Part shown: positions 6,101 to 18,100 of the stretch, one piece after another
How positions within the stretch are numbered: position 1 is the first letter of the stretch
Layout of the letters: every line of letters starts with the position of its first letter
Origin: Flaccisagitta enflata
Taxonomy: Eukaryota
Assembly: GCA_965153355.1 (NCBI GenBank)
Contig: OZ231126.1
Coordinates: forward strand, 9,362,001 to 9,426,000
Length of the DNA stretch: 64,000 nucleotides
Reading direction: 5' to 3'
Translations under genes and position numbers: made by a program
The notes under the pieces: model-generated
Database searches by the model: none
What the model saw: the letters and a program-made list of their open reading frames with translations, nothing else
What the model was told of the DNA's origin: nothing

Positions 6101-9100
6101 CCAAGCAAGAAAATGCCCACAAATTTGCCCTTTCAAGAAGTCTGGAAATTCACCCCTGTGTCCCACAGGACATCAGCCCTTTAGGACCACTGCCCTGCTC
6201 TCACTCCACTCCTTTAGCAGACTACTCCAAGCAGGGCATCGGGTATCGCTGACCATATGCGATCCTTGGATGACTAGCTGTAGATGTTTAAGTGTGTGGG
6301 ATGGGGGTTGGGGTGTCAATGGAAGTTCTATGCTCCTGCCCACTGGTCCGCAAAAATATTGTAACCACACATAACTTGTTTGTTTTGGGTACTTTAGGCC
6401 CTCAGGAAGTGCCCATCAGGGGTGTCAGCTGTCACTTTCATTCATATTGAGCTTTCCTACACTTGATGATAGCGTCTGAATAAAAGATTTGCCCCTTCAT
6501 TATGATAAAGAAACAAAACTATCAAAAATGGTATGATTATGGTTATTCTAACTTTTTGAGCTATTTGAGGACACTATGTGAGTCCGCTTAGGGGCCCTTA
6601 GACTAAATAGGTTTATGTCAAACCTAATCACTGTATCTTCACATAAAATTCACATCTCTTTTGACCTCAATGAAGAAAACTCAGCAAAAAACAGAGTGGA
6701 GCACTGCTAGAGCGCACCCTCTAATAAGGCATGCCTGCCCATGAGGCATGCAACTTACAGTCCCATGAAAGATTTTGTAGTTTTTTTTTCTATATTGGCA
6801 ATAAGGCAGCTTCACTATGTGGCATCTTTTTGCTCAGTGCCTTGAAATGCGCTCTAGTGAAGCTCAACTGTATAACTTTGGTTATTTTTACCATTTTGGG
6901 GCTTCATAAGAACCTCTGGAAGGGCCCCCAGGAGCTACTGTCATCTTTTTCCGAAAAAATCATATTCTACTACTAAATTTCTATTAAACAAAACTAATTC
7001 AAAACTTTCTCATCAATCCATAAAGAAAATATCAAAAAACAAAGTGAGCCAAAATCGACTGCTTTTTTGCGTTTTTGCGATTTTCGCGCATCTTACCTCT
7101 TGCCTAAAATATGTGGGCCCCTGGGTAAAATTGTTAAAAATGAGTATAGAAATTGTACCTTTCATCCTCTAATATATTAATTTTGACAAAAAAATGGTAC
7201 TCAAATCCCAATTCCAACTTAGGCAATCGACCTTCTACCCTACTTAATTCTTTACTCGGAATGAATTTCCAAAATCGCTCTGATGAAGCTAATTATATTG
7301 CTATAAGCTTCCATTCCCTATTTTATATGTCTTTTTTCATTACCCAGTTGAGGCTGTAGGGGGGGGGTGCTACAGTTTTTGGGGGTTAACTTCTTGTATT
7401 TCACTTTCGTCTGTACTCGCTCTATGGGTCACTTTATAATCTACAGTAGGACCCCGCCTAATCGGTCCCATTGGGACTGAAGATTTTCACCTTTATCTCA
7501 GGGTTACCTTTAAATAGAGGTAAAATAACATTAAATACTATCATTTGGGACCTTAAAATGTTGACCTTTATTGATGGGGAACCTTTAAAGGCGAGGCTGT
7601 TATTGCGGGGTCCCACTGTATGTACTCGATCGTGGACGATCTGGTAGGGGCAGTAATGTAAAGAGAATGCTCGTAAACCAAAAATATTTCGGACCGGTGG
7701 ACCAACTGACTGCTTGTTCTCCAAGCTGTCAACAACGGGTGCTTCATAGATTTCTTTCCGTTTGCAATCGTTTTAAAAATAAATCGAGTCGCATATCCGA
7801 CATGTTCAAACTCGATCCACGTTCCACTCGAAATTTGTCTTACCGCATTCCATTTATTTTCAAACTCGTATTTCAGGCTCTTCGATGGCGGGATCCCAAT
7901 TTGGCAACAATCAAAAATTCCCCGTGAAATTGCATCGGACGCCGGCGATTCAACACGGCGGAGACTCATTCATCGAAGGATACTCTTCTGACGACGAGGT
8001 CAGTATACACGTACTCAGCTATACAAATTATAGTCACTAATCGAGATGCAATCGCTTCGCTTTTTTGTCTGTCCGTTGCGTCCTTAAGACATTTTCGCTC
8101 TGGTTCGCACCCCATTTATATGGAACCTCTTGTTCATGTTTCATTTCATGTTGCCACAACCGGTCAGTATAGAACATGTAGCCTACCAGTGCAGGATGTA
8201 TAAGATCGATGGTCAGCGAGAAAGTGAAGAAGATCTATTGTTAAATGACCGGTGATGAGCCTTTCCACTTCTCTGTCTTTTCCAGGATGAGATTCCTTTG
8301 TCGTCGACGCCCTCTTCCGTCCGCAGTCAGTTGCCTTAATTGTTGATCTCCTTTTCCATGTCTTTTTCAGGATGAGAATCCTTTGTCGTCGATGCCCTCT
8401 TCCGTCCGCAGTCAGTTGCCTTAATTGTTGATCTCCTTTTCCATGTCTTTTCCAGGATGAGAATCCTTTGTCGTCGACGCCCTCCTCCGTCTGCAGTCAG
8501 TTGCCTTAATTGTTGATCTCCTTTTCCATGTCTTTTTCAGGATGAGAATCCTTTGTCGTCGACGCCCTCTTCCATCCACAGTCAGTTGCTTAATTGTTGA
8601 TCTCCTTTTCCATGTCTTTATCAGGATGAGAATCCTTTGTCGTCGACGCCCTCTTCCGTCCGCAGTCGCAGTCCACAATCGGACGTCGATCGACTCGGAC
8701 CCACTTCACCTTCAGTCTCTATGGACAATGACTACTCCAATATTTCACTCATTAACAAAGCCAGTGAGTAAAAAAAACTTTTCATCAATAGATCTATCTA
8801 TCTATAGATCTATGTATCTATGAATCTATTGATCTGTAGATCTACTGATCTAGATCATCTAGAGCTTGATCTAGATGTCATCTAGATCATCTTTAGATCT
8901 ATGGATAGATCTATCTATCTATCTATCTATCTATCTATCTATCTATCTATCTATCTATCTATAATGTCCATACATATTATATATGGACATATCTATCTAT
9001 CTATCTGTCTACCTACCTAGCTATGGGTGTGTGGATAGATCTATCTATCTATCTAATATCTATGGAAAATGATTATTCCAATGTTGACTATAATAAAGCC

Positions 9101-15100: not shown

Positions 15101-18100
15101 AAAAAAATCGTCAAAATGACCGTCCGTCCGTCATTGTTTCCATCTAGTTTTATTTCTCCTTCCGGGGGTCAAATTATTTCTTCTTTGCTTCACTTGTCCT
15201 TGACCTTGTCCTTCCATTTGTCTTTGTTTTTTATTTTTTTGTCCTTGTTATCTTTTCTTTCAGTGCGGTTTCCCTTCTGGCGCCGAGTTTTCTCCTCGTT
15301 GTTCCACTTGTCCTTGACCTTGTCCGTCCCATTGTCTTTTCCTTTCAGTGCGGTTTCCCTTCTGGCGCTGAGTTTTCTCCTCGTTGTTCCACTTGTCCTT
15401 GACCTTGTCCTTCCCATTGTCTTTTCCTTTCAGTGCGGTTTCCCTTCTGGCGCCGAGTTTTCTCCTCGTTGTTCCACTTGTCCTTGATCTTGTTCTTCCC
15501 ATTGTCTTTTCCTTTCAGTGCGGTTTTCCTTTTGGTGCCGAGTTTTCTCCTCGTTGTTCCACTTGTCCTTGATCTTGTTCTTCCCATTGTCTTTTCCTTT
15601 CAGTGCGCTTTTCCTTTTGGTGCCGAGTTTTCTCCTCGTTGTTCCACTTGTCCTTGATCTTGTTCTTCCCATTGTCTTTTCCTTTCAGTGCGGTTTCCCT
15701 TCTGGCGCTGAGTTTTCTCCTCGTTGTTCCACTTGTCCTTGACCTCGTTCTTCCCATTGTCTTTTCCTTTCAGTGCGGTTTTCCTTTTGGTGCCGAGTTT
15801 TCTCCTCGTTGTTCCACTTGTCCTTGATCTTGTCCTTCCCATTGTCTTTTCCTTTCAGTGCGGTTTTCCTTTTGGTGCCGAGTTTTCTCCTTGTTGTTCC
15901 ACTTGTCCTTGAACTTGTCCTTCCCATTGTCTTTTCCTTTCAGTGCGGTTTTCCTTCTGGCGCCGAGTTTTCTCCTCATTGTTCCACTTGTCCTTGATCT
16001 TGTCCTTCCCATTGTCTTTTCCTTTCAGTGCGGTTTTCCTTCTGGCGCCGAGTTTTCTCCTCATTGTTCCACTTGTCCTTGATCTTGTCCTTCCCATTGT
16101 CTTTTCCTTTCAGTGCGGTTTTCCTTCTGGCGCTGAGTTTTCTCCTCATTGTTCCACTTGTCCTTGATCTTGTCCTTCCCATTGTCTTTTCCTTTCAGTG
16201 CGGTTTTTCTTCTGGCACCGAGTTTTCTCCTCATTGTTCCACTTGTCCTTGATCTTGTTCTTCCCATTGTCTTTTCCTTTCAGTGCGGTTTCCCTTCTGG
16301 CGCCGAGTTTTCTCCTCGTTGTTCCACTTGTCCTTGATCTTGTCCTTCCCATTGTCTTTTCCCTTCAGTGCGGTTTTCCTTCTGGCGCCGAGTTTTCTCC
16401 TCGTTGTTCCACTTGTCCTTGATCTTGTTCTTCCCATTATTGTCTTTTCCTTTCAGTGCGGTTTTCCCTCTGGCGCCGAGTTTTCTCCTCGTTGTTCCAC
16501 TTGTCCTTGACCTTGTCCTTCCCATTGTCTTTTCCTTTCAGTGCGGTTTTCCCTCTGGCGCCGAGTTTTCTCCTCGCTGTTCCACTTGTCCTTGATCTTG
16601 TCCTTCCCATTGTCTTTTCCTTTCAGTGCGGTTTCCCTTCTGGTGCCGAGTTTTCTCCTCGTTGTTCCACTTGTCCTTGACCTTGTCCTTCCCCTTGTCT
16701 TTTCCTTTCAGTGCGGTTTTCCTTCTGGCGCCGAATTTTCTCCTCGTTGTTCCACTTGTCCTTGACCTTGTCCTTCCCCTTGTCTTTTCCTTTCAGTGCG
16801 GTTTTCCTTCTGGCGCCGAATTTTCTCCTCGTTGTTCCACTTGTCCTTGACCTTGTCCTTCCCCTTGTCTTTTCCTTTCAGTGCGGTTTTCCTTCTGGCG
16901 CCGAATTTTCTCCTCGTTGTTCCACTTGTCCTTGACCTTGTCCTTCCCCTTGTCTTTTCCTTTCAGTGCGGTTTTCCTTCTGGCGCCGAGTTTTCTCCTC
17001 GTTGTTCCACTTGTCCTTCTTCTCCTCGTCATTTTCCCGAAGACTCTTCCTTCGATACTTCGACGGGCGCCGATCTTCACGGCGCCCCCAACGCCGGCGG
17101 CGTCCTTCCGGCCGGCCTCGGCGCCGAAAAGCCTCCGCGTGGTCGTCTCGGCAGCGCCGGCAGCGGCCCGTCTCCCGGCGCCCCATCTCGAGGCGGCGCT
17201 ATCGGCGTGTGTGGTGTCGGCGGTGGTGGTGGTTGTGCGGCGTCTGAGGAAGGGGATCTTCATCATCATCATCATCATCATAATCATCACCATCTTCTCC
17301 CCGGCGTGATCGGTAACGTGTGTTCTAAAGAGTCCGGCGCGGCGTCGTCGTCTTCCGGCGGACATCACCGCAAAAAGACTTCGCATTTGGCATCTCACGC
17401 CTCCAATCATTTCAAACTGCAATTCTCCAAATCCAGAGCCACGACCGACACCGCGGACACGGAAGAAGATGAAGCAGTATTCCCTAAAAAGTAACGACGA
17501 GCTGCTGTGTGTGCTTGATGGATGAAAACACTACACACACAGTCACACACACACAGTCACACACACAGAAACACACACACAGACACACACACACACGCAC
17601 ATACACGCATGCAAATACACACACGCACACACACGCACACACACACACACACACACACACACACACACACACACACACACACACACACACACACACACAC
17701 ACACACACACACACACACACACACAGAGTCAAACAGTCACACACTCACACTATCAAACAGTTAAACAGAAATGCACACACTCAATAACTTAAACAAAAAA
17801 ATGCAGACTTAGGTTGCTTCATCATATCATCATTCAGGTTAAAATCGTTGTTGCAAAAGCGGGAGCCGGGTTTGGCTTCAGACGGTGACTGGGATTCGGG
17901 CAACTCTAGCATCAGTCGTTACGGCGGCAACGGCGGGCAATCCTCATCCAAAGGCGGAGGACAGTCCAACAACAAAAACAACAATAATAAGAAGACGCAC
18001 AAAAGACACTCGTCCTCCTCCATCTCCTCCTCGGCCGCCATTAGCGCCAAAAGATGCTTCAACGAATCCGGTATGGATCATCATTCATCAATCATCTTTA

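Follow-up and report, generated by a model that had tools for sequence, protein, structure and literature searches.

The NFAT5 locus and its two arrays

The analysed window, a stretch of 64,000 nucleotides of Flaccisagitta enflata DNA, contains a gene modelled with 14 exons, 1915 codons and 0 stops. It was named NFAT5 because exons 8-12 encode a Rel homology region, whose DNA-binding and dimerisation domains are closest to those of NFAT5, a regulator of the osmotic-stress response: among the best 120 of 586 matches, the named entries are either NFAT5 or RHD proteins without a name of their own (58-63%), and a region of 273 aa matches named NFAT5 at 51-59% and the relative P0001 at 87%. The 3′ end of exon 6 also matches P0001, at 77%; in a lineage tree the gene is weakly placed among protostome rows, on a long branch. 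The relevant features, in window positions, are as follows.

7877..7998, forward strand: NFAT5 modelled exon 3, open frame, phase 1 to 0
8150..8285, forward strand: faint decayed 5′ edge copy of array 1 and its first spare acceptor (AG 8284-8285), from alignment against shuffles
8274..8667, forward strand: array 1, unit of 43 exon-4 bases and 42 intron bases
8625..8763, forward strand: NFAT5 modelled exon 4, 139 nt, phase 0 to 1, entered at the last copy of array 1
14877..15046, forward strand: NFAT5 exon 5, open frame, whose last 16 bases start the spliced contig of run X2
15110..15263, forward strand: decayed 5′ edge of array 2, with an old intron tail (AG 15146-15147), a degenerate unit and a T-rich insertion
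15251..17018, forward strand: array 2, unit of 52 exon-6 bases and 33 intron bases
16967..17490, forward strand: NFAT5 exon 6, 524 nt, phase 0 to 2, open frame, entered at the last copy of array 2
19613..31282, forward strand: NFAT5 exons 8-12, Rel homology region (Pfam RHD_dimer, E 4.3e-11; homologues)

Both arrays are confirmed as real and beyond chance. Tandem Repeats Finder assigns a period of 85 to each, with 4.6 copies and 94% matches in array 1, and 20.8 copies and 96% matches in array 2. Array 1 carries four spare exon starts (8286, 8371, 8456 and 8541) ahead of the real one at 8625, with acceptor spacings of 85, 85, 85 and 84; array 2 holds 21 acceptors, 20 of them spare (15264 to 16882) and the real one at 16967, one unit being of 88 bases. 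The donors of exon 3 (GT at 7999) and exon 5 (GT at 15047) face array 1 and array 2, respectively. The 24-mer centred on the junction is found in 4 copies at acceptor 8625 and in 20 at acceptor 16967, with no copies at the other 26 of the 28 NFAT5 junctions; junction-spanning copies thus occur at 2/28 junctions, both times at acceptors. The original prediction of two 85-bp arrays with unrelated units (about one third identity in the exon part), located on phase-0 acceptors of NFAT5, is therefore borne out: in the open model the acceptors of exons 4 and 6 are both phase 0, and the ungapped identity of the units is 16/51 over the first 51 bases and 31/85 overall.

The AG is intact in all spare units (4/4 in array 1, 20/20 in array 2), and no donor-like motif was found in either array. 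As had been proposed, only the most distal copy continues into the exon reading frame; in array 1 this is the copy at 8625, the only one open up to the next donor. Spare acceptors lead to premature stops, as also foreseen, since an in-frame stop follows after 17 codons from the AG in 3/4 spare copies of array 1 and 20/20 of array 2; the Rel homology region starts near codon 509, which is 3′ of every such stop.

The units of array 2 are not uniform: 17 distinct types occur among 20 full units, neighbouring units are more alike (Mantel rho 0.23, p 0.005), and the first 52 bases are identical to the real exon start in 1/20 spare copies. Copy-by-copy counting by ordinary RNA-seq is thus possible, because most copies carry diagnostic changes in these 52 bases. 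In the exon part of spare copies, 6/12 variable columns are synonymous, too few to establish a bias.

Both arrays also possess decayed extra copies at their donor-side edge, which were missing from the original prediction. In global alignment of the array 1 edge with 1.5 units, the score was reached by 1/1000 shuffles, and by 4/1000 for the tail part, while the exon-like part alone was not significant (651/1000); the branch region of the first spare acceptor (AG 8284-8285) has diverged. For the edge of array 2, none of 1000 shuffles reached the score of either the entire edge or its exon-like part, and 3/1000 reached that of the tail; here the T-rich insertion, of about 29 bases, puts the branch-like motif at -61 of AG 15262-15263. 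Decayed edge copies are also described, in the available text of PMC3087553, for the BflGb6 array of amphioxus. A microhomology origin of array 2, based on an 11-base upstream match, was discarded, the match being in fact a whole decayed unit.

Splicing across the arrays and known mirages

One RNA contig, from run X2, passes directly from exon 5 into the last copy of array 2 and on into the unique part of exon 6; it has a depth of 4 and 16 donor-side bases, below the 31-base bridging rule of the tool, and comes from an animal of unspecified array copy number. This contig supports splicing of array 2 at its distal acceptor and agrees with the modelled joining of donor 15046 to the exon at 16967. 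Support comes from 1/4 runs and concerns the distal site of array 2 only: runs X1 and X3 yielded 0 contigs, and the raw reads of run X5 gave 0 matches in 12.2 million records, about 6% of the run. Entry into exon 4 through the distal acceptor of array 1 is modelled from the open frame. No contig or read continuing from a spare copy was seen, the single matching record overall having no power for rare use. The exon 5 query against JGI metagenomes returned 595 pattern matches, with 0 relatives and no contig of the same species; a search with P0001 gave no locus above 69% and likewise missed the contig of P0001 itself.

Splicing to the first spare AG would give introns of just 287 bases in array 1 and 217 in array 2, a length at which a donor-side choice could compete. 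RNA folding of the real and one spare acceptor in each array gave z values of 0.14 to 1.36, within the shuffles in 4/4 cases, so that structure does not mask the spare sites.

Although the original prediction knew of no described system like this, acceptor-spanning tandem arrays are an already described kind. In the available text of the respective papers, amphioxus "mirage" minisatellites are reported for the BflGb6 and BflGb9 globins (PMC3087553), for PGBD5 and troponin C (PMC3902484), and for Adh3 (Canestro et al. 2002, as cited by both); PMC3087553 terms their origin unclear. The NFAT5 arrays share several features of these mirages, having head-to-tail units that span the boundary, a retained splice signal, and concerted evolution from which the edges are excluded. 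They differ in lineage, the NFAT5 host grouping weakly with protostomes, and in number, array 2 having 20 spare copies compared with 3-7 reported for the amphioxus globin and PGBD5 arrays; moreover, the two NFAT5 arrays have exactly equal periods, whereas those given for PGBD5 are 60 and 108 bp.

Two human cases are comparable, again from the available text of the sources. In CBS c.844_845ins68 the last 52 intron and first 16 exon bases are duplicated (PMC7490669, PMC2630376); as in NFAT5, the duplication joins an intron end to an exon start, and the distal site is strongly preferred, with the duplicate spliced out, but there is one extra copy without amplification, the unit is 68 bp, and it is a polymorphism with tested splicing. 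The 37-bp VNTR of F7 intron 7 spans the exon-intron border (PMC1557585): this border minisatellite contains identical pseudo-sites, functional but silent, and the exon-adjacent site wins by position; unlike in NFAT5, the repeat lies on the donor side rather than the acceptor side, and it was tested by mutagenesis.

With the NFAT5 arrays, a class that has received little study gains a further lineage and a clean natural test: in array 2, according to one contig, the spliceosome skips 20 near-identical acceptors, several of which lie much closer to the donor, in favour of the last one.

Unit geometry and the favoured origin

The geometry of the two arrays, proposed to be identical, is so only in part. 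Period (85), stop (bases 52-54) and branch-like A (-32) coincide, while the cut points do not: spare copies follow the real exon for 43 bases in array 1 and for 52 in array 2, so the units are 43+42 and 52+33. Amplification of a module with fixed cut points is consequently unsupported, because the cuts differ. The proposed unit of AG, 17 codons and a stop applies to all spare copies except the fourth of array 1, which adjoins the real exon, measures 84 bases and has its stop after 19 codons. Moreover, the "17 codons ending CCT" are exon throughout in array 2, but in array 1 pass from 14 exon codons into intron. The placement of the stop within a branch-point-like motif about 32 nt before the next AG holds for both arrays; however, stop and motif are one fact and not two, because the TRA core of the motif is itself TAA or TGA. 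The -32 offset is the average of the gene, as 9/12 other NFAT5 acceptors give a mean of -31 (sd 5.6, from 10 values; the other 3 have no motif).

We consider it likely that the arrays are two independent mirage minisatellites, passive and harmless duplications in which the acceptor nearest the next donor wins. Each would have started with a short duplication across the intron-exon junction, as each unit consists of intron tail, AG and exon start; unequal crossing-over or slippage would then have amplified and homogenised the copies, as suggested by the similarity of neighbours and the decayed 5′ edges, and the arrays would persist because they are harmless. Spare acceptors, with no donor of their own, would be removed with the intron. 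By analogy with CBS, F7 and amphioxus, the last copy may be picked by cross-exon definition, because it lies closest to the next donor and no other copy leads into the unique exon sequence. Stray use of a spare site would meet a stop far 5′ of the DNA-binding domain, and the RNA would probably be degraded; this stop is the branch-point-like motif's own TRA core, read in frame.

This passive origin is favoured by the different cut points and by the array 1 spare copy nearest the exon, which lacks the 17-codon pattern. The restriction of junction copies to two acceptors, the contig into the distal copy, the variety of array 2 units with similar neighbours, and the absence of donor-like motifs and of excess folding also speak for it. 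Against it count the thin contig support and the short would-be introns, together with a unit similarity slightly above that of the gene's other acceptor pairs.

The shared period and other explanations

Only the equality of both periods, at exactly 85 bases, remains to be explained. Finding 2/14 acceptors within long-period arrays has P ~0.17, unsurprising for a repeat-rich window, while the equal period of two arrays has a probability of about 0.8-2% under assumed priors. That period, branch offset, phase and frame should all match has a probability of about 5e-5 to 3e-4 per pair, as a product of separate factors under assumed priors; with these priors the value is low, given that probably few multi-array genes have been examined, and counts against passive duplication. 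Most likely, the equal period is a coincidence picked out post hoc.

Other long-period arrays in the window have periods of 29, 29, 39-41, 107, 113 and 136. The two 29-bp arrays are unrelated and also share their period. In an NFAT exon of another animal (L029, 1/37 loci), junction-spanning repeats are present at both ends, with periods of 30 and 132. That exon and the shared 29-bp period were also counted for passive duplication, along with the decayed edges, the average branch offset and the chance-level invariance of stop and AG.

The same harmless mirages may, with a rather low probability, have arisen by a duplication biased in length near 85 bp, wherever the cuts fall; a joint match of ~1 in 4,000 to 1 in 20,000 keeps this possibility alive. 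A DNA-level ruler would fix the sum of the unit and not its parts, and equal totals from unequal parts, with the low prior of an equal period, are as expected of it. Nucleosomes could provide such a length, which is close to one superhelical turn of their DNA or to half their repeat length. It is similarly doubtful that a ruler of ~85 bp repeatedly takes up, as one unit, the stretch from branch point through pyrimidine tract and AG to exon start, so that the acceptor mirages of the genome would cluster at this period. The periods in the window and in L029 speak against a ruler, and so do the published mirages, given in the available text as 10-72, 60, 108 and 150-160 bp (PMC3087553, PMC3902484), with 68 for CBS and 37 for F7. 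The literature covered, with most subscription papers outside it, yielded neither a gene with two arrays of equal period nor a report of a genome-wide period bias of such arrays. If the 85-bp period did reflect a genome-wide bias, it would give a first handle on how mirages arise; if a ruler exists, their origin would gain a measurable molecular signature.

It is improbable that the arrays act as a copy-number-tunable decoy, in which spare AGs produce stop-containing, degraded RNA and array length sets the NFAT5 dose. In the strongest form, 20 spare acceptors would drain NFAT5 transcripts in proportion to copy number, and if array length did tune NFAT5, a marine animal would be controlling gene dose in a novel way. 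In favour of a decoy, 20/20 spare units of array 2 retain both AG and stop, every stop lies 5′ of the Rel domain (codons ~127 and 230 vs 509), and the first AG could plausibly compete because the introns that it would close are short. However, retention of AG and stop in array 2 is expected by chance, without selection (P 0.27), the decayed copies are those nearest the donor, and the sole contig uses the distal site; furthermore, the in-frame stop is not needed to break the frame, because 85 is not a multiple of 3. The tunable decoy of the original prediction found no support. Splicing is given as normal in the available text on published mirages, CBS and F7 (PMC3087553, PMC3902484, PMC2630376, PMC7490669, PMC1557585), and no report of unproductive NFAT5 splicing appeared in the literature listings.

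A distant common origin of the two units, by an old internal duplication or by ectopic exchange between junction regions, would account together for equal period, equal branch offset and shared CCT, and seems very improbable. The whole-unit alignment score was matched by 4/156 pseudo-unit pairs, and the intron tails rank 4/91 by local score, with a 9-mer in common and a shuffle p of 0.01-0.05; a p near 0.03 is weak because several tests were run. Conversely, the ungapped identity is ordinary (13/156; 24/91), the exon parts rank 12 and 22 of 91, the encoded peptides are unlike, and blastn gives just a 20-base pyrimidine match (E 0.55).

That assembly inflated the arrays or invented junction copies is hardly credible: the sequencing runs listed are all RNA runs, but 17/20 units are distinct, neighbours carry runs of shared variants and the edge copies are heavily decayed, and since an assembler would not create such graded variation, unit variants and decayed edges oppose an artefact.

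Arrays at two NFAT5 acceptors

A search with a Rel-domain exon matched 586 proteins; of the 120 best hits, those that carry a name were NFAT5, at 58-63%. P0001, an unnamed related protein, shows 86% identity to this exon and also matches the 3' end of exon 6. The NFAT5 model comprises 14 exons (3108-40599) and 1915 open codons with no stops; in the protein tree it sits on a long branch, and its grouping with protostome sequences is only weak. The arrays originally proposed span its phase-0 acceptors of exon 4 (8625) and exon 6 (16967), and Tandem Repeats Finder, with 114 rows for this very repeat-rich window, returned the 85-bp period for both:

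8274-8667: array 1, period 85, 4.6 copies, 94% matches
15251-17018: array 2, period 85, 20.8 copies, 96% matches

Array 1 contains five acceptor copies, its final unit having 84 bases, and array 2 contains 21, a single unit having 88. The frame is kept solely by the last copy of each array, and the stop-free model agrees with the original reading of phase-0 acceptors with an open frame only from the most distal copy. The premature stops anticipated for the proximal AGs were also found, near codons 127 (array 1) and 230 (array 2); since the Rel region begins near codon 509, a product obtained via these spare acceptors would be devoid of the DNA-binding domain.

Other features of the gene are:

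30760-30857: 4.7 copies of a 21-bp unit, each bearing a donor-like motif; homology requires no exon there
33314-34774, plus strand: long open frame in the intron between exons 12 and 13, resembling by eye a non-LTR retrotransposon reverse transcriptase
37465-40599, plus strand: 3135-base low-complexity exon, rich in Ser, Pro, Ala and Gln, more than half of the modelled protein

Choice of the acceptor

The run search gave five RNA runs, with small or no word share, and four were aligned to 14800-15348, which includes exon 5, its donor and one array 2 unit; this target concerns array 2 only and its joints are not countable copy by copy. Three of the four gave no match to it: X1 and X3 had no contigs there, and X5 had no match among 12.2 million raw records, about 6% of that run. 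The run X2 gave a single contig of 188 bases at depth 4. Its 5' part corresponds to the final 16 bases of exon 5 and then to the 52 bases common to the copies, with one difference from the first array 2 copy; within these 52 bases, base 9 alone distinguishes the first copy from the last. The 3' part consists of 120 further bases, and the 30 displayed are 17019-17048, unique to the last copy. The contig is the splice from 15046 to 16967, on one contig and 16 donor-side bases, fewer than the 31-base rule of the tool asks for; the proposed mapping from donor 15046 leads in this contig to the distal AG, rare events being below the power of the data.

The units may have been amplified by unequal exchange, and cross-exon definition would select the last AG, because what sets the real copy apart from the spares lies entirely downstream, in donor distance and unique exon sequence; the stray product of spare-acceptor use would presumably decay. 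The next donor is 139 bases from the real acceptor and 223-478 from the spare ones in array 1 (524 versus 609-2227 in array 2), and GAA/GGA per 100 bases is 2.3-3.1 in unique exon sequence versus 0-1.2. Against cross-exon definition, exon 6 is large for this mode of recognition, and introns ending at the first AGs would measure only 287 and 217 bases. No donor-like motif was found within either array, and no unusual RNA folding in 4 of 4 stretches. At 16712-16966, the three spare copies adjoining real exon 6 share one sequence, from which the internal AG at unit base 24 has been lost, so that more AG-free sequence lies upstream of the real acceptor than of most spares.

Amphioxus mirages and the history of the arrays

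Tandem duplications of an intron 3' end and the following exon 5' part, named mirages, are described for the amphioxus globin BflGb6 in PMC3087553; their units measure 10-72 and 150-160 bp, splicing is normal and the origin is called unclear. PMC3902484 adds troponin C and PGBD5, the latter with two arrays in one gene, which differ in unit length (60 and 108 bp), unlike the NFAT5 arrays. Mirages in these texts already span intron-exon junctions, and the original statement that no such system is described does not hold. In CBS 844ins68, 52 intron and 16 exon bases are duplicated, with a strong preference for the distal site (PMC7490669 and PMC2630376), and the F7 VNTR is a donor-side counterpart (PMC1557585). 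No report of two same-period arrays within one gene, or of a period bias, was found in the literature searched. Both NFAT5 arrays are probably further cases of the mirage kind, most likely harmless.

Among 37 NFAT/Rel loci of other animals, which comprise 99 exon blocks with some redundancy, junction-reaching repeats were found in one, L029:

L029 6546-6711 and 6819-7081: in one exon, a 30-bp array from the acceptor side and a 132-bp duplication spanning the donor; the array enters the exon by a few bases and its spare copies have lost the AG

Array 2 is preceded on its 5' side by one more unit, decayed but with an AG of its own at 15146-15147 (score matched by 0/1000 shuffles), in which a T-rich insertion has shifted the branch-like motif to -61 of the following AG; array 1 has a fainter decayed copy (1/1000), whose exon-like part is not significant by itself. 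In both cases, therefore, the damage lies in the donor-nearest copies, and the arrays are old and undergo turnover, anchored by the working exon. Amphioxus mirages, too, are reported to decay at their edges (PMC3087553), so selection against the acceptor closest to the donor is possible, but not needed.

Shared geometry and alternative origins

The identical geometry originally claimed stands for the stop (bases 52-54) and the branch-like A (-32), but not for the cuts, which are 43 exon plus 42 intron bases in array 1 and 52 plus 33 in array 2, where exon end and intron start together form the branch-like motif. Likewise, the 17-codon pattern describes the typical unit, but the spare copy adjoining exon 4, shortened by a one-base deletion, reaches its stop only after 19 codons. 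The core of the branch motif is TRA, and the in-frame stop coincides with it, so that a stop within the branch motif counts as a single feature. TRA is found at -23 to -39 in 9/12 other NFAT5 acceptors (mean -31, sd 5.6), making -32 the usual place; in array 1, a further candidate lies at -25. The frame is a consequence of period 85, phase 0 and -32.

The probability of an equal period is 0.008-0.02 (five assumed priors) and of an equal branch offset 0.05-0.10; phase is equal in 32/78 acceptor pairs (both phase 0 in 3/78) and the in-frame chance is 1 in 3. The product, about 5e-5 to 3e-4 with assumed priors and features picked after the fact, is small enough that the joint match cannot be called explained. 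A length-biased duplication process, acting on equally harmless mirages, is the live, though unlikely, alternative to a coincidence of periods. Equal periods do occur here, as in two unrelated arrays returned by Tandem Repeats Finder:

635-1205, also listed as 180-1205: 29-bp period
40891-41323: 29-bp period, just beyond the last modelled NFAT5 exon

Tunable decoy acceptors are improbable; in array 2 the stop and AG are invariant, with a chance P of 0.27 given 19/85 variable columns. Still less probable is a common origin of the two units: compared with 156 pairs of pseudo-units built from other NFAT5 acceptors, their gapped score was reached by 4 and their ungapped identity by 13, while the intron tails ranked 4/91 by local score and 23-24/91 by two further measures, and the exon parts 12 and 22 of 91. 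This agrees with the earlier claim of unrelated units, which seem related weakly at most and are treated as independent. An assembly artefact is very improbable, since array 2 has 17 distinct sequences among its 20 full units and adjacent units resemble each other more than far ones (Mantel rho 0.23, p 0.005).

Beyond NFAT5, the window contains:

about 52300-63900, minus strand: second gene, made up of large exons (open frames: 255, 468 and 314 codons)
61993-62082: degenerate hexamers resembling telomere repeats, in a short run of period 6
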